A stretch of DNA of 64,000 nucleotides from a virus. The notes beneath the pieces were generated by a model. That model saw only the letters and a list, made by a program, of their open reading frames with translations. It did not search any database and was not told the DNA's origin. The stretch is taken from UHGV virus genome UHGV-0332176, one strand, 5' to 3'. Positions 4,866 to 36,320 of this stretch are shown here, one piece after another (position 1 is the first letter of the stretch; each line of letters starts with the position of its first letter). A program made the translations under genes and the position numbers.

Positions 4866-6152
4866 ATGGCTAATGAAAATGCAACTAAAATTCAATTAAG
4901 ACACGATTCATCTGCAAATTGGTTTGCTAATAATCCAATTTTAGCTGAAGGTGAAGTTGGTATTGAAATTGATAAAAATAGAATGAAAGTTGGTAATGGT
5001 GTAAGTCATTACAATGATTTAGAATATTTTTCTGATACTGTTGATTATAATGAATTAATTAATAAACCACAAATTAATAGTATCGGTTTGATGGGTAACT
5101 TATCTTTACACGAATTAGGTATTCAAGCAGAAGGCGATTATGCAACTGTATTAACTTTAACAGAAGGTTTATCAGAAAAAGCTGATAAAGCTGATACTTA
5201 TACTAAAACTGAAATTGATACTGAATTTTCTTCACTTATTAAAGTTCCAGCTATTGATGGACACGATGGAGAATGGTTAACTAATAAAGATGGAGTAGTT
5301 AAATGGGAAAATCTTGGTGATTCAGTTGTTACTAATGAAGAATTAACAACTGCATTAGAACCATATGCTTTAAAAACTAATATACCTACAAAAAATTCTC
5401 AATTAGAAAATGATTCTGACTTTGTAACTTTAACTGAATTAGCAGAATCTGATTATGTAACAAATACAAATTTAACAACTAAATTAGGTGAATATGTTAC
5501 TAATACTGCATTAGCTGAAGAAGGATATGCAAAAAATAGTGAATTAGCTCAAGTTGCAAAATCAGGTTCATATAATGATTTAACAAATAAACCAACTATT
5601 CCAACTGTTCCTGAAAATATTACAACTCAAGGAAATACTTTTAACGGAGCTAATCAATTAGTAAAATTAGAAGCTGATGGTAAATTACCAGCATTAGATG
5701 GAAGTAAATTAACTGGAATAAGTTCTGGAACATCTGATTATTCTGTATTATCTAATAAGCCACAAATTAATTCAGTTGAATTATCAGGTAATAAAACATT
5801 AGACCAATTAGGAATTCAAGCTAAAGGAGATTTTGCAGTTAAATCAACTACATTATCTGGATATGGTATTACAGATGCATATACAAAGACTGAATCTGAT
5901 AATAAATATGCAACTCAAACTTCTTTGAATTCTTATTTAACAACTGCATCAGCTTCTACAACTTATGCTACTAAAACAGAATTAGTAGATAAAGCTGATG
6001 TTGAAGATATTCCACAAGGAAATCAATTAATGGCTGGACAAGCTCCTACTGTTGCCGATATTAGTGCAGAAACAGTTACAGATATTCCAGGTTTAATTAG
6101 TGCAATTAATGCAATTTTAGCTCAATTAAGAACACGTAATGTTATTGAATAA
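4866..6152 (+). CDS. tail-fibre-like protein (428 aa) with multiple (Y/S)xxLxNKPxIN...LGIQAxG(D/N)Y repeats
   Basis: Internal repeats. A 74-nt segment is near-identical to one in the next gene. Confidence 0.55.
   Translation: MANENATKIQLRHDSSANWFANNPILAEGEVGIEIDKNRMKVGNGVSHYNDLEYFSDTVDYNELINKPQINSIGLMGNLSLHELGIQAEGDYATVLTLTEGLSEKADKADTYTKTEIDTEFSSLIKVPAIDGHDGEWLTNKDGVVKWENLGDSVVTNEELTTALEPYALKTNIPTKNSQLENDSDFVTLTELAESDYVTNTNLTTKLGEYVTNTALAEEGYAKNSELAQVAKSGSYNDLTNKPTIPTVPENITTQGNTFNGANQLVKLEADGKLPALDGSKLTGISSGTSDYSVLSNKPQINSVELSGNKTLDQLGIQAKGDFAVKSTTLSGYGITDAYTKTESDNKYATQTSLNSYLTTASASTTYATKTELVDKADVEDIPQGNQLMAGQAPTVADISAETVTDIPGLISAINAILAQLRTRNVIE
5754..5827 (+). repeat. 74-nt direct repeat (73/74 identical to 6380..6453) spanning adjacent tail-fibre genes
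   Basis: aataagccacaaattaattcagttgaattatcaggtaataaaacattagaccaattaggaattcaagctaaagg. A second 32-nt repeat pair is 5856..5887 and 6629..6660. Confidence 0.8.
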
Positions 6153-6169
6153 ATTAAAGGAATAATTAT

Positions 6170-6925
6170 ATGACAGAAAGAATTGATATTAAATATGTAT
6201 TAAAAGATACAAAAGCAAATTGGACAAGTTTTAATCCAATTTTATCAAAAGGTATTATGGCTTATGAAACTGATACAAATTTAATTAAATTATTTGATGG
6301 TGTTTCTGATTATAATTCATTAGCATATATTGGTGGAACAGGTGGTTCATCTACACCAACTGATTATGCATCTTTATCTAATAAACCACAAATTAATTCA
6401 GTTGAATTATCAGGTAATAAAACATTAGACCAATTAGGAATTCAAGCTAAAGGTAATTATTTGGTTTCATCTGATTTAAATAATTATGCTTTGAAATCTG
6501 AATTACCTACAAATACAAGTGATTTAACAAATGATTCTGGATTTTTAACATCTATTCCTTCAGAATATGTTACTGAAACAGAATTAAATAGCAGTTTAGA
6601 AGATAAAGCTGATACTGCAACAACTTTATCTGGATATGGTATTACAGATGCATATACAAAAACTGAAGCTGATGGTAAATATGCAACAAAAACTGAATTA
6701 TCTAATAAAGCTGATACAAGTGCATTATCTAATTATGCAACTACATCTGCTTTAACAGAAGGATTAGCAGAAAAAGCCGATACAAGTGCATTACCTGCTT
6801 CAACTTCTTTAATGAATGGAACTGCTCCTTCTGTTGCTGATTTTGCAGGAGCTGATGCAGAAGGATTAAAAACAGAATTAAATGCATTTTTAGCCCAACT
6901 TAAAACTCGTGGTGTAATTGCATAA
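6170..6925 (+). CDS. tail-fibre-like protein (251 aa), paralog of the C-terminal part of 4866..6152
   Basis: Shares the SNKPQINSVELSGNKTLDQLGIQAKG and SGYGITDAYTKTE segments. C-terminal ...AQLKTRGVIA resembles ...AQLRTRNVIE of the previous gene. Confidence 0.55.
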   Translation: MTERIDIKYVLKDTKANWTSFNPILSKGIMAYETDTNLIKLFDGVSDYNSLAYIGGTGGSSTPTDYASLSNKPQINSVELSGNKTLDQLGIQAKGNYLVSSDLNNYALKSELPTNTSDLTNDSGFLTSIPSEYVTETELNSSLEDKADTATTLSGYGITDAYTKTEADGKYATKTELSNKADTSALSNYATTSALTEGLAEKADTSALPASTSLMNGTAPSVADFAGADAEGLKTELNAFLAQLKTRGVIA

Positions 6926-24429: not shown

Positions 24430-25011
24430 GTGATTAATAGATTTGAAAAGATAGAAAATGAAAAATTTATAGAAATATTTAATACTTCTGAAAGTAAAGG
24501 TGAAATTTGTCGTAAATTAAATATGCATAATAATGGTAAATCTATGAAATATATTAATGCAATGATTAAAGAACTTGGTTTGAATATAAATATTTTTAAA
24601 GAAAATCATTTCAATAAATATCATATAAAAAAGATTTGCCCTGTATGTGGTAAAGAATTTATTACAACAACAACGGAAAAAGGTAAGAATAAGGTATGTT
24701 GCTCATATTCGTGTGCTAATACTTATTTTCGTAGTGGTGAAAATAATGGAATGTATAAAAATTCTAATCTTTCAGGAAGAAATTCTTATTCAACTATTTG
24801 TTTTAGACATCATCCTCATAAGTGTTGTATATGTGGCGAAGAAAATATAGTTGCTGTTCATCATTATGATGGTAATCATAATAATAATGATATAAGTAAT
24901 TTAATTCCTTTATGTCCAACACATCATTGTTATATACATTCACGATTCAAAAATAAAATACAAGATAAAGTTGATGAATATAGAAATAATTTTATAAAAT
25001 CAAATAGTTAA
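24430..25011 (+). CDS. HNH homing-endonuclease-like protein with an N-terminal Zn-ribbon (GTG start)
   Basis: HNH motif HHYDGNHNNNDISNLIPLCPTHH. Zn ribbon CPVCGKEF...CCSYSC is shared with 27708 and 33183. Embedded between tRNA genes. Confidence 0.6.
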   Translation: MINRFEKIENEKFIEIFNTSESKGEICRKLNMHNNGKSMKYINAMIKELGLNINIFKENHFNKYHIKKICPVCGKEFITTTTEKGKNKVCCSYSCANTYFRSGENNGMYKNSNLSGRNSYSTICFRHHPHKCCICGEENIVAVHHYDGNHNNNDISNLIPLCPTHHCYIHSRFKNKIQDKVDEYRNNFIKSNS

Positions 25012-25285: not shown

Positions 25286-25358
25286 GGTTCGGTGACAGAA
25301 CGATTAATGTACTCGCCTGCAAAGCGATGTTTAGTGGGTTTGACTCCCACCCGAATCT
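25286..25358 (+). tRNA. tRNA-Cys(GCA), weak D-stem; CCA encoded
   Basis: Acceptor ggttcgg/ccgaatc; anticodon loop ctGCAaa; T-loop tttgact. Confidence 0.5.
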
Positions 25359-25389
25359 CCAATTTATTTTTTAAGAATGGTGAGAAATT

Positions 25390-25483
25390 GATTTACATAG
25401 ACTGGAAATCCGTGTGTAGAAAGTTCGATTCTTTCCCCATCGACCATTTAACGGTGGGTAGCTCATTGGTAGAGCAACGTTAA
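25390..25483 (+). ncRNA. tRNA fragments: a 3' half (T-arm gaaag-ttcgatt-ctttc + cccatcg-a-CCA) followed by a 5' half (ggtgggt-a-gctc-attggta-gagc-a-acgtt)
   Basis: No complete cloverleaf could be folded by eye. The 5'-half motif tagctcat(a)ttggtagagcaacg recurs at 34146..34169. Confidence 0.35.
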
Positions 25484-25531
25484 ATGATAATCAATTGTTA
25501 TGTTCCTTCTTAATTTTTTATAAAAAAGTTC

Positions 25532-25559
25532 TTGACATTAAAAAATTATGTGTTATATT
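25532..25559 (+). promoter_or_regulatory. early-type promoter aaaaaagttcTTGACA-N16-TGtTATATT
   Basis: Read directly; upstream of the 25606 gene. Confidence 0.6.
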
Positions 25560-31094: not shown

Positions 31095-32249
31095 ATGACA
31101 AATTATATTGTAAATAATAATAATGTTAGAATATTTGGTGATGAAGAAGTTAATATTCAACCAAATTTGCCATTAGGTACATATTTAGTAAAAGAAAATC
31201 CTATGTCTGGTGAATTATATTTAGAAAAAACAGTCAATTTTACAAAGCCAACAAAAATTTATGGAGATTGTGAATTTCAATCTGAAAGAATTATTACAAC
31301 ATTTAAAGATAGACCAAAGAATACAGGTGTATTATTAAATGGTGCAAAAGGGTCAGGAAAAACATTTTTAGCAAAATATATTTCTTATAAGTTGTTAAAT
31401 GAAAATTATTCAACAATTGTTATTAATGAAATTTTTAATCCAACAAAATTGTCATTATTATTACAAACAATTTCTGAACCTTGTGTAATTATTTTTGATG
31501 AATTTGAAAAAATTTATCAACCAAGTAAAAATGATAATAATAATCCTCAAAATGGTTTATTATCATTATTAGATGGTTTATTTCAAACAAAAAAATTATT
31601 TATTTTTACTTGTAATGATGATAATAATATTTCTGATTTAATGAAAAATAGACCAGGTCGTGTTTATTATAAATTAGAATTTAAAGGTATTAACGATAAA
31701 GCTATTGAAGAATACTGTGAAGAAAAATTAATTAATAAAAAATATCTTTCACAAATTTTTAGTATCAAAAAAATGATTAAAGATTTTACATTTGATATTC
31801 TTCAAACAATCGTAGAAGAAGTTAACAGATATAATGAAACTCCATTGGATGCTGTTAAAATGTTAAATGTTACTCCACAATCATTATATACAAGATATAG
31901 TATTTCTGTTAAACCTTTACAAGGTCAAAAAATTATTAATTATGAAAAAACAATATGGATGAATCCTTTATCTTCAGATGAAGAATCAGTTTGGATTAAA
32001 CGTTATGGAACTGAATTAAATATTGATGATGAAGATAGTAAACGAAAAATTATTAGTGATATAGCAATAAATGATGATGACGATGATGAAGAAGATAATG
32101 ATGAAAAAACAACTGATTATGTCATTATTTCATTAGAAACATTAATATCCACAAATAAAAATACCTATGTTTATAATAGTGGTGGTTATCAAATTATTTT
32201 AACAAAAAAAGAAATTGATACAACTGATATGTGGAGATATGCTGTTTAA
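31095..32249 (+). CDS. AAA+ ATPase (classic clade)
   Basis: Walker A GAKGSGKT, Walker B IIFDEFE, sensor-2-like NRPGRVYYKLEF. Acidic C-terminal tail. Confidence 0.6.
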   Translation: MTNYIVNNNNVRIFGDEEVNIQPNLPLGTYLVKENPMSGELYLEKTVNFTKPTKIYGDCEFQSERIITTFKDRPKNTGVLLNGAKGSGKTFLAKYISYKLLNENYSTIVINEIFNPTKLSLLLQTISEPCVIIFDEFEKIYQPSKNDNNNPQNGLLSLLDGLFQTKKLFIFTCNDDNNISDLMKNRPGRVYYKLEFKGINDKAIEEYCEEKLINKKYLSQIFSIKKMIKDFTFDILQTIVEEVNRYNETPLDAVKMLNVTPQSLYTRYSISVKPLQGQKIINYEKTIWMNPLSSDEESVWIKRYGTELNIDDEDSKRKIISDIAINDDDDDEEDNDEKTTDYVIISLETLISTNKNTYVYNSGGYQIILTKKEIDTTDMWRYAV

Positions 32250-32299: not shown

Positions 32300-32830
32300 A
32301 TATTGTTCCTAATGATGAATTAGGTTAGATGAAAAATCTGTAAAAATTGTGTTTATTTTTAATAATTCAGAAAGGAGTTATATATCAGAATCATTCAATA
32401 ATTGGTATTATTAACCAATAGGAAGCCTTTTTAAGGCAATGAGAGTAACCAATCTTTCTTTTGATATATTATAATTTGTTGTTACTTGAATAATGGGTCG
32501 CCAGCCCATAAAAGTATACAGATGATAAACTGAAAAGTTTTGAAGGTAGTTGTGAGTAATATGAGCATAAGGTTGAAATAGCCACAGTTGGATAACTGTG
32601 AGTGACGTAAGAACCAGACAAATCGTGGTTGAAGAATCTGATGGCTGTATCTGGTTGGGAGTAATCAATCTCCCCATCTATTAAGCAAAGGAGTAATTAA
32701 CCTTTGTGGATGTGACTGAATAATGTGTGAATATGAGGGGCTTGTCGGTAGTCAGGAGTCCGACCAACAAATTATAACAGTTTGTGGCAGTCGTTCTGTT
32801 AAAAACTCTGCCTTTTTATTTAAATTGATA
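32300..32830 (+). ncRNA. promoter-proximal ORF-free region, candidate large structured RNA
   Basis: No + strand ORF longer than 40 codons. GC-richer islands (gggtcgccagccc, gaggggcttgtcggtagtcaggagtccgacc) in an AT-rich background. Confidence 0.25.
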
Positions 32831-32851
32831 GTAAGAAAAAGATTTACATAG
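32827..32851 (+). repeat. unit-start repeat, copy 6 (gatagtaagaaaaaGATTTACATAG)
   Basis: Family consensus TTGnnAATAGTGAG-N5-7-AGATTTACATAG. Other copies: 32912..32942, 33878..33902, 33975..33999, 34066..34090, 34218..34243. Confidence 0.7.
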
Positions 32852-32932
32852 ATTAATTTTTGGTATTAATAACAACAAATTTTTTTCAGGGTTCTTCAAT
32901 TTAAATAAAAATTGCGAATAGTGAGTTATTAG

Positions 32933-33006
32933 ATTTACATAGCTAAATTGGTTAAAGCATCAAATTGTTAATTTGAGTATTGTAGGTTCAATTCCTACTG
33001 TAAACA
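32933..33006 (+). ncRNA. tRNA-shaped RNA (Y-RNA-like unit 1): acceptor atttaca/tgtaaac with A1.C72 mismatch, anticodon-loop ttGTTaa, canonical T-arm gtagg-ttcaatt-cctac, no encoded CCA
   Basis: Immediately follows repeat copy 1. Every bona fide tRNA in the island encodes CCA; this one does not. Confidence 0.45.
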
Positions 33007-33041
33007 CAATCTAATAGAATGTTCTTTCGCTTTTTATTATT

Positions 33042-33070
33042 TTGACATTTTTAATTAAATGTTTTATAAA
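33042..33070 (+). promoter_or_regulatory. promoter TTGACA-N17-TATAAA about 10 nt upstream of tRNA-Ser(UGA)
   Basis: Read directly. Confidence 0.5.
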
Positions 33071-33079
33071 TAAATTTAT

Positions 33080-33162
33080 GGAAGGCAACTGGCTGGATGA
33101 AGACACCGACTTGAAATCGGCTGGGCAGAGATGCTTTGGGGGTTCGAGTCCCTCGCCTTCCG
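33080..33162 (+). tRNA. tRNA-Ser(UGA), type II with a long variable arm; CCA encoded
   Basis: Acceptor ggaaggc/gccttcc perfect; anticodon loop ctTGAaa; T-arm ggggg-ttcgagt-ccctc. Confidence 0.65.
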
Positions 33163-33182
33163 CCATTTTTTTGAGAAAAAAT

Positions 33183-33569
33183 ATGAAATGTTTAAATTGT
33201 GGTAAAGAAATATTTGATAAAAAACATAAAAATAGAAAATATTGTTGTAATAAATGTCAAAAAGAATTTGAATGGAAACAAACAAAACAATTAATTGAAA
33301 TTTATAATACATATCAATTAAAAAATTATAATGAATATACTGCAAGAAGGACAGCTAAAAAATATTTAATTGAAAAATATGGAAATAAATGTAGTATTTG
33401 TGGAACGACTCATTGGTTAGGAAAACCAATTTTATTAATTGCTGACCATATAGATGGAGATGCCACAAATAATTCAATAAATAATATTAGACTTATTTGT
33501 TCTAATTGTGATGCTACATTAGATACATATAAAGCTAAAAATAAAAGTACAAGAACAAGTCGTAAGTAG
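33183..33569 (+). CDS. HNH homing-endonuclease-like protein with N-terminal Zn ribbon (start at MKCLNCGKE; the track's upstream extension overlaps tRNA-Ser)
   Basis: HNH motif ADHIDGDATNNSINNIRLICSNCD. Zn ribbon CLNCGKEI...CCNKC is shared with 24430 and 27708. Confidence 0.6.
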   Translation: MKCLNCGKEIFDKKHKNRKYCCNKCQKEFEWKQTKQLIEIYNTYQLKNYNEYTARRTAKKYLIEKYGNKCSICGTTHWLGKPILLIADHIDGDATNNSINNIRLICSNCDATLDTYKAKNKSTRTSRK

Positions 33570-33574
33570 TTTTT

Positions 33575-33646
33575 GCCTTCGTGGCTCAATGGTACAGCAG
33601 TCGATTTGTAATCGACCATTTCCTCGTTCAAGTCGGGGCGAAGGCA
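33575..33646 (+). tRNA. tRNA-Thr(UGU); CCA encoded
   Basis: Acceptor gccttcg/cgaaggc perfect; anticodon loop ttTGTaa. Confidence 0.75.
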
Positions 33647-33667
33647 CCAATTTTTAAGAGCTGACAA

Positions 33668-33719
33668 GCTGTTCCGCTTCTTATATTAAATAATATATAG
33701 CTTCTCGAACAGCGTTTTA
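33668..33719 (+). terminator. terminator-like hairpin after tRNA-Thr (gctgttc...gaacagc + gtttt)
   Basis: Read directly; large loop. Confidence 0.35.
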
Positions 33720-33877
33720 ATAAACTCTCCCGCTAAAGATACTTTGTGTATACAGCGAATATGGATAAACGTTAAATCGTTTTAATAACTATAATATAAC
33801 ACGTGTGAAAAAGTTATTATGAGTAAAGAGTTTTCATCAATCTCTATAAACAAAATTGATGAAATTATTTAAATGGT

Positions 33878-34205
33878 AATAGTGAGAAATAGATTTACAT
33901 AGATACTAACATTCAAACTGTTACAATATTAAAGAATCTATTAATATGTTCTTTACCAATTAAATAATTTTGACAATAGTGATATAAAGAATTACATAGA
34001 TAACTGATTATTATCTGCCAGAAAATATTTCTTTATTATTATTCTTTGTCATATAAAAAATTAGCAATAGTGAGAGAAAGATTTACATAGGCTTGTAACC
34101 CGTAGGTAATTGGTTCGAATCCAATCAGATGAATGAAAATTCATTTGTAGCTCATATTGGTAGAGCAACGAAAAAAAGAATCTTTCAATATGTTCTTTGC
34201 TTAAT
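33878..34205 (+). repeat. tandem degenerate Y-RNA-like units 2 to 4, each repeat followed by tRNA-arm-like pieces (T-arm attgg-ttcgaat-ccaat at 34109..34125; D-arm/5'-half atttgtagctcatattggtagagcaacg at 34141..34169)
   Basis: Repeat copies at 33878, 33975 and 34066. Each unit ends near (a)tatgttcttt: 33019, 33946, 34190. Confidence 0.5.
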
Positions 34206-34234
34206 AAATTTTTTGGTGATAGTGATTAATTAGG

Positions 34235-34306
34235 TTTACATAGTGAAATGGTTAACACATTTGTCTTGAAAACAAAGAAATGCAGGTTCGAGTCCTGCTG
34301 TAAATA
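34235..34306 (+). ncRNA. tRNA-shaped RNA (Y-RNA-like unit 5): acceptor gtttaca/tgtaaat, type-I body with Ser-type anticodon loop ctTGAaa, T-arm gcagg-ttcgagt-cctgc, no encoded CCA
   Basis: Immediately follows repeat copy 5. The acceptor helix is nearly identical to unit 1 despite a different anticodon. Terminator follows. Confidence 0.45.
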
Positions 34307-34341
34307 ACACCTAATTTTTTGTTCTTCACCTAACATTTTGC

Positions 34342-34373
34342 AACCCAAGAACATATGTTCTTGGGTTTTTTTA
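34342..34373 (+). terminator. rho-independent terminator (aacccaagaacat/atgttcttgggtt + T7)
   Basis: Read directly. Confidence 0.6.
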
Positions 34374-34385
34374 TTAAATAAATTC

Positions 34386-34414
34386 TTGACATATTTTATT
34401 TAATATGTTATAAA
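34386..34414 (+). promoter_or_regulatory. promoter aaattcTTGACA-N17-TGtTATAAA for the TROVE gene
   Basis: Read directly. Confidence 0.55.
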
Positions 34415-34454
34415 CAGGAATGTAAATTAACCTTAACTTATGGAGTGTTGAAAA

Positions 34455-35744
34455 ATGAAAACAAATAAAGCAATTAAAAAAGACCCAGTATATACTTATG
34501 AAGGTGGTAAAGCATCTCATATTTCTGAATTAGAAGAACTTAAAAGAGCAACAATGTCTTGTTTGCTTTGGGAAGATAATTTCTATGAAGATGGAGTATC
34601 TATTGCAGATAGAATTACCTCATTAGTTAAGGCTTGTATAGATAAAGGTCATTATGATGATGTTATTGATATTTTAAAGAAAGTTAAATTTGATATGAAA
34701 ATTCGTCATTGTCCTTTATGGATGATTGTTGCAATTTATAAAGCTGGTAAAACAATTTCTAAAGATGTTATTGCATCTATCTTAACAAGACCTGATGATA
34801 TGGGTGAATTGCTATCTTTATATAGAAAAGATAATGAAAAATCTCCTATTCCAAATGCTATTAAGAAAGGTATGGCTATTGCATTACAAAAATTTGATGA
34901 ATATCAATTAGCAAAATGGAATCGTAATGCAAATTATAAATTAGTTGATATTGTTAATATTTGCCATCCAAAGGTAACTGAAGCTATTGATAAATTAGTT
35001 AAAGGTACTTTAGAAACTCCTAAAACTTGGGAAGTTTTACTTTCAGCAGCAGGTTCAGATAAAGAAAAGAAAAAAGATGCTTGGAATGAATTAATTGAAT
35101 CTAATAAATTACCAGATATGGCTTTATTAAAGAATATTCGTGGTATGCTAGAAAGCGGTGTATCAAAAACTGTTATTGTTGATAGAATTAATATGATTAA
35201 AAGTGGTCGTTTACTACCAATTGATTATATTAGAGCTGCAGAAAATAATCCATCTTTAGAAAATGAAATTGAAAAGAAATTTCTAAATTGCTTTGAAAAA
35301 CCATCATTATACGGTAAAACTGCAATTCTTGTAGATGTTTCAGGTTCAATGGATGGTGAACGCTTAAAATATGCAAATGCATTGGCAATGATTGGACGTG
35401 AAATGTGCTCAGAAGTTGATATATATTCATTCTCTGATTATGTTAAATTTGTACCAAATCGTAGAGGTTTTGCATTAGCAGAAGCTATTGATAAATCTCA
35501 AACTCATTGGGGAACTAATATGTGGGATGCTATTACTGAAGTTGAAAAAGGACGTTATGATAGAATTATTGTTGTAACTGATGAACAAACTATGGGTAGT
35601 CCTCATAATGCTAAAATTAAAAATGCATATATGATTAATGTGGCATCTTATTCAAAAGGTGTTGGATATAACAATGGTTATAAACACATTAATGGTTTTT
35701 CAGATAAAGTATTCAATTACATTTCTGAAATTGAAAATGTATAA
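34455..35744 (+). CDS. Ro60/Rsr-like TROVE-domain protein (helical N-terminal region + C-terminal vWA with MIDAS DxSxS)
   Basis: TAILVDVSGSMDG MIDAS motif about 130 aa from the C-terminus, downstream of an alpha-helical repeat region, matching the Ro60 (TROVE) architecture. Adjacent to the tRNA-mimic array. Confidence 0.55.
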   Translation: MKTNKAIKKDPVYTYEGGKASHISELEELKRATMSCLLWEDNFYEDGVSIADRITSLVKACIDKGHYDDVIDILKKVKFDMKIRHCPLWMIVAIYKAGKTISKDVIASILTRPDDMGELLSLYRKDNEKSPIPNAIKKGMAIALQKFDEYQLAKWNRNANYKLVDIVNICHPKVTEAIDKLVKGTLETPKTWEVLLSAAGSDKEKKKDAWNELIESNKLPDMALLKNIRGMLESGVSKTVIVDRINMIKSGRLLPIDYIRAAENNPSLENEIEKKFLNCFEKPSLYGKTAILVDVSGSMDGERLKYANALAMIGREMCSEVDIYSFSDYVKFVPNRRGFALAEAIDKSQTHWGTNMWDAITEVEKGRYDRIIVVTDEQTMGSPHNAKIKNAYMINVASYSKGVGYNNGYKHINGFSDKVFNYISEIENV

Positions 35745-35759
35745 ATATTATTAACAAAC

Positions 35760-36068
35760 CCGATAGGCTTCTTATTTAATTGAGTAGTATGGGTATATTA
35801 GATGACTTAATGCTCACTCCCCTCTGCTACTCTTTAAATTAAATATAGCACAATTATCTTTCTGGAATTGACCAGATAAGTTTATTAAAATTCCTAGGTT
35901 AAATTAATAAATGGGTAGATTTATAAAATTATCCTAAACACGCTCTGATACTTTAATAGTATTAACGCTTATTATATGAGATTACATATAACAATTATAA
36001 TTTCAGCTGTTCAGTTATAATTGGGATATTGGATTTAATCAATTTAACAAGAGAGATTAATTTCTTTC
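35760..36068 (+). ncRNA. ORF-free region downstream of the TROVE gene, candidate additional Y-RNA-like RNA
   Basis: No ORF. Terminal complementarity gagtag...ctactc (35784/35829). Hairpin aacaagagaga...tctttcttgtt at 36046-36074. Confidence 0.25.
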
Positions 36069-36320
36069 TTGTTAAATTATTTTTGTATAAAAGGAAATAA
36101 AATGTTAAATTTAAAAAGTATTTTAAATGATAATATGAGAGTAAAATTTGATTTTTATCGTGATGGTGCTTTATGGTATTCAACAATGAATGGATTTCAA
36201 TTTCCTGTTTCCGTAAAAACATTAGCTGGTACAACAATTTTAAAAGCTAATGATAAAGCATCAGCATTTAGTTATTATATTAAAAAATATTATAATGAAT
36301 TAAATAAAGATAAGGAATAA
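36069..36320 (+). CDS. hypothetical protein (83 aa)
   Basis: RBS aaaaggaaataaaatg. Confidence 0.4.
   Translation: MLNYFCIKGNKMLNLKSILNDNMRVKFDFYRDGALWYSTMNGFQFPVSVKTLAGTTILKANDKASAFSYYIKKYYNELNKDKE

Follow-up and report, generated by a model that had tools for sequence, protein, structure and literature searches.

Ro60 genes accompanied by Y RNAs are already known from phages (PMC4201824, PMC12135203), and Y RNAs have been suspected beside phage Ro60 in other cases (PMC11482910, PMC12282133, PMC7824862). In bacteria, the YrlA RNAs were defined by their adjacency to rsr, by the 5' motif GNCGAAN0-1G, which overlaps the nucleotides protected by Rsr, by YUAY after the stem and by a module with a T arm and a D arm around a closed stem; RNAs of the YrlA type were reported in 254 bacteria and 22 phages, in a survey that discarded overlaps with annotated tRNA genes (PMC4201824). 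With such a filter, units bearing a cloverleaf would have stayed hidden. The present analysis concerns a stretch of 64,000 nucleotides (nt) of the UHGV virus genome UHGV-0332176, hereafter the window, the AT-rich DNA of a human-gut phage, coding for tail proteins and HNH endonucleases (Pfam/PHROG), where a gene for a Ro60-type protein and an array of six small RNA units stand inside an island of more than 25 tRNA genes (23.3-38.1 kb of the window; ARAGORN, Rfam), a seventh unit being found at 25371..25513. The comparative evidence, namely the TROVE family of the protein, a covarying RNA stem and the linkage of this stem to TROVE genes, supports the candidate phage Rsr/Y-RNA module proposed by an earlier, sequence-only reading of the window, and a Ro60 protein together with its cognate Y RNA array is regarded, from sequence comparison, as the likely nature of the locus. 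The gene and the units, of 81-143 nt each against about 80-130 nt in Y RNAs of the YrlA/YrlB type, are listed below, with scores in bits against R1, the covariance model described further on.

34455..35744, + strand: Ro60/Rsr orthologue as assigned below, 429 residues; TROVE HEAT-repeat ring and von Willebrand factor A (vWA) domain carrying a MIDAS motif (metal ion-dependent adhesion site)
25371..25513, + strand: Y1, putative Y RNA with YrlA-type tRNA-like module (T arm, closed stem, D arm)
32821..32903, + strand: u0, putative short Y RNA, 31-nt hairpin module; R1 43.6 bits
32914..33030, + strand: u1, scaffold with full cloverleaf at 32933..33006, anticodon GTT; R1 56.1 bits
33874..33958, + strand: u2, putative short Y RNA, 37-nt module; R1 58.3 bits
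33971..34051, + strand: u3, putative short Y RNA, hairpin module GATAA...TTATC; R1 53.4 bits, fold z -3.2
34063..34201, + strand: u4, putative Y RNA with YrlA-type module: T arm GGTTCGAATCC, closed stem, D arm TAGCTCA..GGTAGAGC
34215..34330, + strand: u5, scaffold with full cloverleaf at 34234..34306, anticodon TGA, short variable arm; R1 54.4 bits

The array units u0-u5 lie 125-1634 nt upstream of the TROVE gene and Y1 about 9 kb upstream, all on its strand. The YrlA and YrlB RNAs associated with Rsr in Salmonella Typhimurium and Mycobacterium smegmatis show the same gene adjacency and strand (PMC4201824, 10.1101/312249), as well as paired ends, a purine-rich G-N-C/U-G-A-A on the 5' strand, YUAY after the stem and the coexistence of an RNA with T arm, closed stem and D arm (Y1 and u4 here) and a shorter partner devoid of them, like YrlB. 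They differ in number, one to three RNAs instead of seven, and in YrlA only the 5' strand is recognisable, whereas the 3' strand (UUGUUCY) and a bulged helix are strongly conserved here. Besides, the cloverleaf of u1 and u5 is unpermuted, with an anticodon arm, and has the Ro module on its acceptor end, whereas YrlA has no anticodon loop and its Ro module takes the anticodon-stem position (10.1101/312249). In Deinococcus radiodurans Yrn1, a T arm and an 'anticodon arm' were modelled in normal order relative to the Ro stem (PMC4201824), as in u1 and u5, but there is no full D arm, the 'anticodon' loop has 6 nt, the variable region is missing and the RNA does not pass as a tRNA, where u1 and u5 reach 67-71 bits.

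In Thermus phage phiLo, the Y-like RNAs Yrl1 and Yrl2 lie just upstream of the gene for phiRo60 (PMC12135203; PDB 9KOP, 9L5Y), and phiRo60 with these two phage RNAs binds the host PNPase and attenuates it (PMC12135203). phiRo60 is the best PDB match of the window protein, by fold (E 4e-16) and by sequence, where it is the single significant phmmer match over the full length (E 1.9e-11); it differs by its size, about 500 residues vs 429, with 20% identity in the structure-based alignment, and the two phiLo RNAs have their CGAA motif in a large bulge, tRNA-shaped modules not being described for them (PMC12135203). In animal Y RNAs, Ro60 contacts mainly the 5' strand of a bulge-distorted helix near the paired termini (PMC12135203, PMC4201824); the sequence, GGUCCGA, is different there and no tRNA-like module is present. 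A Ro60-like gene also stands beside annotated tRNA genes or abundant small RNAs in E. coli phage Bas63 (as gp130; PMC11482910) and in Listeria phage CKA15_055 (PMC12282133); the architecture of these RNAs is left undefined in those papers, and both proteins fall outside the close homologues found here. Bas63 gp130 counters the Ppl defence, which suggests an anti-defence role, and its neighbouring 'tRNA genes' could be Y RNAs according to a guess of the authors (PMC11482910). No description was found in the searchable literature of the bulged-helix scaffold of this phage TROVE subfamily of about 430 residues, of scaffold Y RNAs in crAss001 and other phages, or of a seven-RNA expansion or cloverleaf modules with changeable anticodon arms, and no family of Rfam 15 captures the scaffold at its gathering score, YrlA giving sub-threshold matches that are limited to the T/D-arm core of Y1 and u4.

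Ro60-type protein and RNA scaffold of the window

The product of 34455..35744 had been credited with the architecture of Ro60, and this was borne out by a match above threshold to the TROVE model rather than to a generic vWA one: Pfam TROVE (PF05731) gives 57.4 bits (cut-off 23; E 1.9e-15), the same family is found in all the listed homologues, and the vWA models stay just under their cut-offs (Pfam VWA_2, 19.3 bits vs 27). An end-to-end match to PHROG 850, 'RNA-binding protein', was also obtained (E 7.5e-30). The C-terminal MIDAS motif VDVSGSMDG, another element of the sequence-only reading, is present, and the five MIDAS residues (D294-x-S296-x-S298, T354 and D376) are invariant across 34 homologues of 43-86% identity. 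The AlphaFold2 (AF2) model, built on the homologue alignment with a mean predicted local distance difference test of 89.7, retrieves from the PDB with Foldseek Ro60/Rsr structures at all of the top 13 ranks (phiRo60, Xenopus and human Ro60, D. radiodurans Rsr), with query-normalised template modelling (TM) scores of 0.62-0.69, and isolated vWA-domain structures rank below them. The protein is some 70-100 residues shorter than the matched Ro60 structures. From its sequence and modelled fold, it is assigned as a Ro60/Rsr orthologue.

Regarding the RNA side, six copies of a motif had been noticed upstream of the gene. Written as ATAGTRA-N(6-14)-TTACATAG, the pattern was recovered in 6 copies in 32828..34243, all on the + strand, against 0.02 expected from dinucleotide-preserving shuffles, and a looser regular expression added the seventh at 25371. 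Each unit follows the layout P0(5')-UAGUGAG-S(5')-UUACAUAG plus module-S(3')-(A)AUGUUCU-P0(3'), in which the strands of the outer helix P0 take one pair of sequences per unit (TTAAGAA/TTCTTAA, AAATTGA/TCAATTT, GCGAA/TTCGC, TGGTAA/TTACCA, TGACAA/TTGTCA, AGCAA/TTGCT and GGTGA/TCACC). The TTGnnA formerly taken for a free-standing motif is really the 5' strand of P0, paired with the bases after GTTCT, and helix S has the 'N5-7' spacer for its 5' strand, unit-specific in sequence and with its complement on the 3' side (e.g. AATTGATT/AATCAATT, TTATTAGATT/AATCTAATAG, GAAAGATT/AATCTTTC and AATTAGGT/ACCTAATT). When the units are read side by side, the end near (A)TGTTCTT holds for all of them. In Y1, P0 TTAAGAA/TTCTTAA and S AATTGATT/AATCAATT enclose the 5' motif UGGUGAG and the 3' motif UAUGUUCC; in u0, P0 is TAAATTGA/TCAATTTA and S is GAAAAAGATTT/AAATTTTTTTC. 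Unconstrained minimum free energy (MFE) folding recovers P0 and S in 6 of the 7 units, including Y1, and in u0 the MFE and centroid structures are the same, with the scaffold visible (z -2.4).

Between P0 and S stands a bulged non-canonical helix, 5' UAGUGAG / 3' AUGUUCU in the window, and this helix is the conserved feature in place of the Ro-binding stem ATTTACAtaG / CTGTAAAT that had been sought in the acceptor helix. Across the 62 units matched by R1 (see below), the pair of alignment columns 11-140, where base 2 of the 5' motif faces the final base of the 3' motif, is G-C in 40 and A-U in 22 and is never left unpaired; within the window it is G-C in Y1 and A-U in u0-u5. The pair next to it is G-C in 60 of the 62 units, and further in come an invariant U.U-type mismatch, a G.U pair (61/62), mostly an A.G and then an A-U pair, with an invariant bulged U on the 5' strand and three nucleotides (G-Y-U) bulged on the 3' strand before S. 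The same arrangement, one U bulged out of the 5' strand and 3 nt out of the 3' strand, is described for animal Y RNAs. By its conservation and by analogy, the bulged helix is read as a protein-recognition helix, in its general design like the helix read by Ro60 in animals (PMC12135203). Another pairing, ACAUAG/UAUGU, which the Rfam alignment takes for stem 1 of YrlA, was rejected, being topologically crossed with S and invariant in the window clade; in addition, the wider family has no counterpart of it, the apex there reading UUACUUC.

The modules borne by this scaffold are of three kinds, YrlA-type tRNA-like (Y1 and u4), short hairpin (u0, u2 and u3) and full cloverleaf (u1 and u5). T-arm and D-arm pieces had been attributed to the three units located between the cloverleaves, which stands for 34063..34201 and fails for the other two, these being short hairpins; of these, u2 is missing from some 95%-identical relatives. 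In a covariance-model scan, the Rfam YrlA model gave 40.7 bits for Y1 at 25394..25507 and 36.6 bits for u4 at 34101..34172 (model positions 23-87), both under the gathering score of 69, and no match to any of the other five units. The aligned YrlA core (positions 23-87) comprises GGUUCGA and UAGCUCA..GGUAGAGC in Y1 and u4; the stems that Rfam aligns in these two units differ from the scaffold and are probably wrong.

Covariation and linkage to TROVE genes

Thirteen units, seven of the window and six of L001, a locus with 86% protein identity, were located by sequence motif alone, so that their pairing is not a selection artefact: P0 and S pair in all 13, with differing sequences. In the module-deleted alignment of 19 units (7 of the window, 6 of L001, 3 of L005 and 3 of crAss001), 92.7% of the cells are paired vs 59% in shuffles and 38-48% in slid controls, two-sided changes are found in 14/14 pairs and the covariation score amounts to 0.851 vs 0.231, the former being reached by 0 of 500 shuffles. 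Compensatory changes are also seen at short range, between the window and 95%-identical relatives, as P0 of u5 goes from GGTGA/TCACC to GATGA/TCATC and S of u4 from GAAAGATT/AATCTTTC to AAAAGATT/AATCTTTT.

The covariance model R1 was built from 19 scaffolds and run on 86 sources (747 kb), i.e. the window and 85 loci that were nearly all fetched for their TROVE gene. It returned 62 matches (E<=0.01) in 42 of the 86 sources. Every match shares its strand with the TROVE gene; 54 lie upstream of this gene and 8 downstream, at a median distance of about 150 nt. A control set of other viral contigs, collected on grounds that had nothing to do with TROVE and totalling 888 kb, gave one match (E<=0.01); it is located at the pattern match that had led to the choice of its contig, the control thus being biased towards matches. 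The counts per locus are lower bounds, since R1 with default filters recovers the cloverleaf units of 117-121 nt and misses the YrlA-type ones of 139-143 nt, and with filters off loses all units with modules above about 40 nt. A scanner based on pairing only had been dropped in favour of the covariance model, as it gave some 170 matches per shuffled window. By pattern scan of IMG/VR, multi-copy arrays of the window motif were found only in two contigs with a close TROVE homologue, about a hundred single matches being attributed to chance; a looser pattern gave a single match per returned locus, and a strict re-scan detected no real unit there.

The scaffold accompanies the TROVE gene over a range of 98% to 33% protein identity, with the same strand and close spacing, and in GC-rich phages the same architecture is built with wholly different P0 sequences. 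For the 48 matches outside the seed, the consensus runs P0, U-G/A-G-U-G-A-A-G, S, G-U-U-A-C-U-U-C with 6-47 nt, S', C-G-Y-U-U-G-U-U-C-Y and P0'. The 5' motif, UAGUGAG or UGGUGAG in the window and UGGUGAAG in most relatives, corresponds to GNCGAA(G) with a change of C to U, the canonical C being present in 4 of these 48 units and, at the same place, in all five units of L003 (59% protein identity), which carry GGCGAA or GGCGAG; besides, the UUAC after helix S fits YUAY. Apart from its U, the 5' motif agrees with the published Rsr-contact motif, which supports, at the level of sequence, the assignment of the units to Y RNAs of the YrlA/YrlB kind. In most phage relatives, two RNAs are present, one short and the other of the YrlA type (e.g. 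L009, 3756-3829 and 3843-3975; L140, 2842-2913 and 2930-3065), an arrangement that mirrors yrlB-yrlA-rsr, and the window clade has expanded this set to six or seven.

In Bacteroides phage crAss001 (NC_049977), the TROVE gene gp96 is followed by a 900-nt 'empty' gap that contains at least three standard scaffold units, at 5907-5990, 6001-6078 and 6480-6625 of the locus; the stretch corresponds to 96055..96773 of NC_049977, minus strand, between gp96 and gp95. Two more RNAs with tRNA-like termini are located there, at 6084-6227 and about 6330-6480, in which a tetraloop closes the Ro module and this module occupies the place of the anticodon arm, a circular permutation of the YrlA layout; the former is a tRNA with a 70-nt insertion according to Rfam. 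The TROVE gene of crAss001 is an early gene (PMC8375218).

Several points weigh against regarding the units as cognate Y RNAs of the protein. Over the 62 units, P0 and S are 91.7% paired vs 54% in shuffles, with a covariation score of 1.007 vs 0.278, figures that are inflated as the R1 matches are fitted to the model; the 11-140 pair, which is absent from R1, escapes this inflation. The z-scores of single-sequence folds are modest (-1.95 to -3.24), and the unconstrained MFE fold of u2 favours a different structure. The published motif is inexact, with U in place of C in 44 of the 48 non-seed units, and the YrlA (RF02553) matches of Y1 and u4, confined to the tRNA-like core, leave both units outside that family at its gathering score. 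Several relatives of 62-79% protein identity (L011-L015 and L220) have no recognisable unit within 4-10 kb, from which it follows either that adjacency is not obligatory or that their RNAs differ. Finally, the cloverleaf units keep all the nucleotides of the tRNA tertiary contacts, and u1 and u5 could be excised and receive CCA through host enzymes.

Cloverleaf units, rival explanations and possible function

These last points belong to the rival explanation that survives best, improbable as it is judged, according to which u1 and u5 are ordinary phage tRNAs (Asn and Ser), their flanks are leader-trailer processing helices (e.g. RNase III or RNase E sites) and the Ro60 gene is a mere neighbour. 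As had been predicted, both units contain a complete cloverleaf, with Rfam tRNA scores of 66.7 bits for u1, read as Asn(GTT) by ARAGORN, and 70.7 bits for u5, read as Ser(TGA), well over the gathering score of 29 and among the best of the island; their location in this island, the completeness of the tertiary contacts, the CCA-adding enzyme usual in hosts and the precedent of M. smegmatis YrlA, itself cut by RNase P and provided with CCA (PMC4201824), suit this explanation too. The flanks do not: the same ones surround the five non-tRNA units, they are found on none of the ~25 genuine tRNAs of the island, and their motif tracks TROVE genes in phages where the module is only a hairpin of 6-47 nt. 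Among 201 predicted tRNAs in TROVE loci, a cloverleaf within the scaffold is limited to the window clade (59-98% protein identity); RsoM2USA and L161 have plain tRNAs near the TROVE gene.

The cloverleaves themselves lack features of decoding tRNAs. Neither encodes CCA, as the sequence-only reading had stated, whereas 24 other island tRNAs have it right after their listed end, and so does tRNA-His by our own reading of its 3' end. Nucleotides 1-2 of the tRNA are part of helix S, and the 7-bp acceptor stem is not conserved, being broken in orthologues by U2.U71 with helix S kept; what is conserved is a stack of S and a 5-bp TTACA/TGTAA stem, and a 3' bulge of 4-5 nt, leading into S, takes the place of NCCA. 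Identity elements are wrong as well: position 73 is A in u1 against G in the two genuine tRNA-Asn genes, and u5 is devoid of the long variable arm that marks the genuine, CCA-encoding type-II tRNA-Ser(UGA) at 33080..33164, with which it is redundant and shares an identical anticodon loop. The A1.C72 mismatch of u1 noticed earlier is seen in the Rfam alignment.

Among human-gut relatives of 66-98% protein identity, orthologues differ from one another mainly in the anticodon arm, and very little in the D arm, the T arm or the scaffold. At the position of u1, the anticodon is GTT, GTA or TGA, with GTA occurring in the same 95%-identity class as the GTT carriers; at the position of u5, it is TGA, AAC, AAT or GAT. 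Such shifts between near-identical genomes, including forms with A34, argue against decoding; in bacterial decoders, A34 (as in AAC or AAT) is known only from tRNA-Arg(ACG). The loops nevertheless keep the format of 7 nt with U33 and a purine at 37. From these sequence features, u1 and u5 are most likely tRNA mimics displayed on Ro60, and not decoders; the units would act as Y RNAs, as indicated by the covarying stem with the Rsr motif, the linkage to TROVE and the features foreign to decoders. In annotation practice, this is a warning that some 'tRNA genes' beside phage Ro60 genes are probably not decoders.

A little less probable still is a structured RNA bound by some other factor, or a self-contained ribo-regulator, whose linkage to TROVE would reflect shared regulation. 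The TROVE loci devoid of nearby units and the strongly conserved apical motif GUUACUUC/UUACAUAG, which has no assigned partner, would fit such an RNA, but the strand that is conserved agrees with the motif that Rsr protects and Ro60 contacts in the systems studied (PMC4201824), the bulged-helix design parallels the animal Ro site, and the RNA follows the gene, on the same strand and at close spacing, down to the most divergent proteins of the range given above.

As for the repeated 5' motif being a phage promoter set before each small gene (TTGnnA, 16-17 nt, TACATA), that is a signal of the DNA and not an RNA structure, the spacing resembles that of -35 and -10 boxes (TTGACA-17-TACATA in u3) and true TTGACA-type promoters are present in the island, yet this explanation is highly improbable, given that the '-35' bases are variable and each has its complement after GTTCT, 80-140 nt downstream, that P0 is paired at 91.7% in the 19 units and 88.2% in the 62 with two-sided changes in every pair, that the architecture persists in GC-rich phages with entirely different P0 sequences, and that TACATA is deprived of the consensus final T, a sigma-70 scan giving no more sites than shuffles (54 vs 43 +/- 6; uninformative in AT-rich DNA). 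The covariation of P0 implies that the '-35' bases are transcribed, their pairing being otherwise meaningless.

With Ro60 and its cognate Y RNAs retained as the preferred reading, the locus would form a phage ribonucleoprotein (RNP) module that combines a single Ro60 orthologue with seven YrlA/YrlB-like Y RNAs. In each unit, the RNA ends pair through P0 and close the molecule; the bulged helix would dock against the outside of the Ro60 ring, in the manner of the Xenopus Ro-Y RNA complex, and the module would point away from the ring to recruit or mimic a partner. Ro60/Rsr proteins are characterised by Y RNA at their outer surface and misfolded RNA in their cavity. By analogy with Rsr-Y RNA-PNPase and phiRo60, such RNPs may redirect or blunt the exoribonucleases and RNA surveillance of the host during infection; in D. 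radiodurans and Salmonella, a Y RNA tethers Rsr to PNPase. The position in a tRNA island suggests tRNA-related targets; an early-infection reshaping of host RNA decay and surveillance, with such targets, is the best-supported reading of the role by analogy; any specific partner of the RNPs is proposed with much less confidence than the array itself.

One such proposal, tentative and rather unlikely, is that of anticodon-display decoys: tRNA mimics displayed by Ro60, with anticodon stem-loops exchanged or mutated from one closely related phage to another, would soak up or misdirect host factors that act on anticodon loops, which may be anticodon nucleases, other tRNA-targeting defences or modification enzymes, or may deliver them to an exonuclease. 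The variation of the anticodon arm, the kept loop format, the identity of the u5 loop with that of tRNA-Ser(UGA) and the Bas63 precedent fit the decoys without demanding them. If true, the anticodon arm would be a fast-evolving specificity cassette of a phage counter-defence RNP.

The role of the effector module of Y RNAs is the main open question on bacterial Ro60, and the tRNA-like domain of YrlA has no known partner. The window offers a natural experiment in this respect, with one Ro60 and seven RNAs that would share one docking stem and bear three kinds of heads, including a complete tRNA with an exchangeable anticodon arm. Besides, a sharply defined model of the putative Ro60 site, backed by covariation, now picks candidate partner RNAs next to the TROVE genes of dozens of phage lineages, including the gut phage crAss001, which is cultured and has been studied by transcriptomics.

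Neighbouring features of the locus

The units have no obvious promoters of their own and are probably excised from transcripts of the island. Around the Ro60 gene, the following elements were delineated.

34342..34376, + strand: intrinsic terminator-like hairpin, 11-bp stem (34342..34367) with 5 G-C pairs, then TTTTTAT; closes the RNA array
34386..34414, + strand: candidate sigma-70-like promoter of the Ro60 gene, TTGACA-17 nt-TATAAA, as read by eye
34441, + strand: candidate GGAG ribosome-binding site of the Ro60 gene, read from the sequence
35755..35935, + strand: structured element, conserved, of the 3' part of the Ro60 transcript, just past the stop codon; travels with the gene
36041..36085, + strand: terminator-like hairpin and T run, ends the Ro60 transcription unit

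The promoter candidate at 34386..34414 is outside the list of the consensus scan, as its last -10 base is A. TTGACA-(16-17 nt)-TATAAA/TATATT elements were recognised by eye right after u1, Y1 and u5 (33042-33075, 25527-25558 and 34386-34414), before the next gene, and these promoter-like sequences suggest a host with sigma-70-type promoters rather than Bacteroidetes-type ones. The element at 35755..35935 is kept in relatives down to 73% protein identity, including ones without adjacent Y units (L011, L013 and L220). In an RNAalifold consensus of 6 sequences, it has 27 pairs, 6 of them with compensatory changes; its pairings comprise ACCC/GGGU, GAUAG/UUAUC (AGUAG/UUACU in L011, covarying) and a CUGG..CCAG hairpin, and an extra hairpin is inserted in the window, L218 and L001. 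In L011, L012 and L220, relatives of 79% and 77%, the TROVE gene stands outside a tRNA island, with an IS605 OrfB/TnpB-like gene and DNA methyltransferases ahead of it; in L220, a Thg1-like gene is located some 9 kb downstream of it.

Among eleven other open reading frames (ORFs) spread over the window and scanned with Pfam/PHROG, none matched RtcB, an RNA ligase, PNPase or any other RNA-repair gene. Upstream of the array, 31095-32249 codes for an AAA/STAND-like ATPase (PHROG 2376, E 3e-85), conserved at this position in the window and in L218/L219. Next comes a GC-enriched noncoding stretch of about 350 nt (32465-32815), directly upstream of the first array unit, which shares 88% identity with L001 1238-1590 and 97% with L218; its predicted consensus structure, from 3 sequences only, is extensive, with -84 kcal/mol, 4 compensatory pairs and a 3' hairpin GGCAG...CUGCC-UUUUU, and the sole hint from Rfam is a weak manA match (25.8 bits at 32686-32774). 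By its predicted folding, it is a candidate large structured RNA. Another noncoding stretch, 33650-33872, between tRNA-Thr and u2, is 95% identical to L218, with a core of 83 nt that is 84% identical to L001, and contains the inverted repeat GCUGUUC...GAACAGC.

Two HNH endonuclease ORFs lie within the tRNA island (33186-33569 and 24430-25011), the former with DNA-level similarity to HNH genes of the crAss-like phages cr53_1 and cr116_1. Finally, two CCA-encoding tRNAs of the island were missed by ARAGORN, namely the type-II tRNA-Ser(UGA) at 33080-33164, labelled tRNA-Sec by Rfam (31 bits), and a tRNA-Cys(GCA) at 25286-25361 (Rfam tRNA, 47.5 bits).

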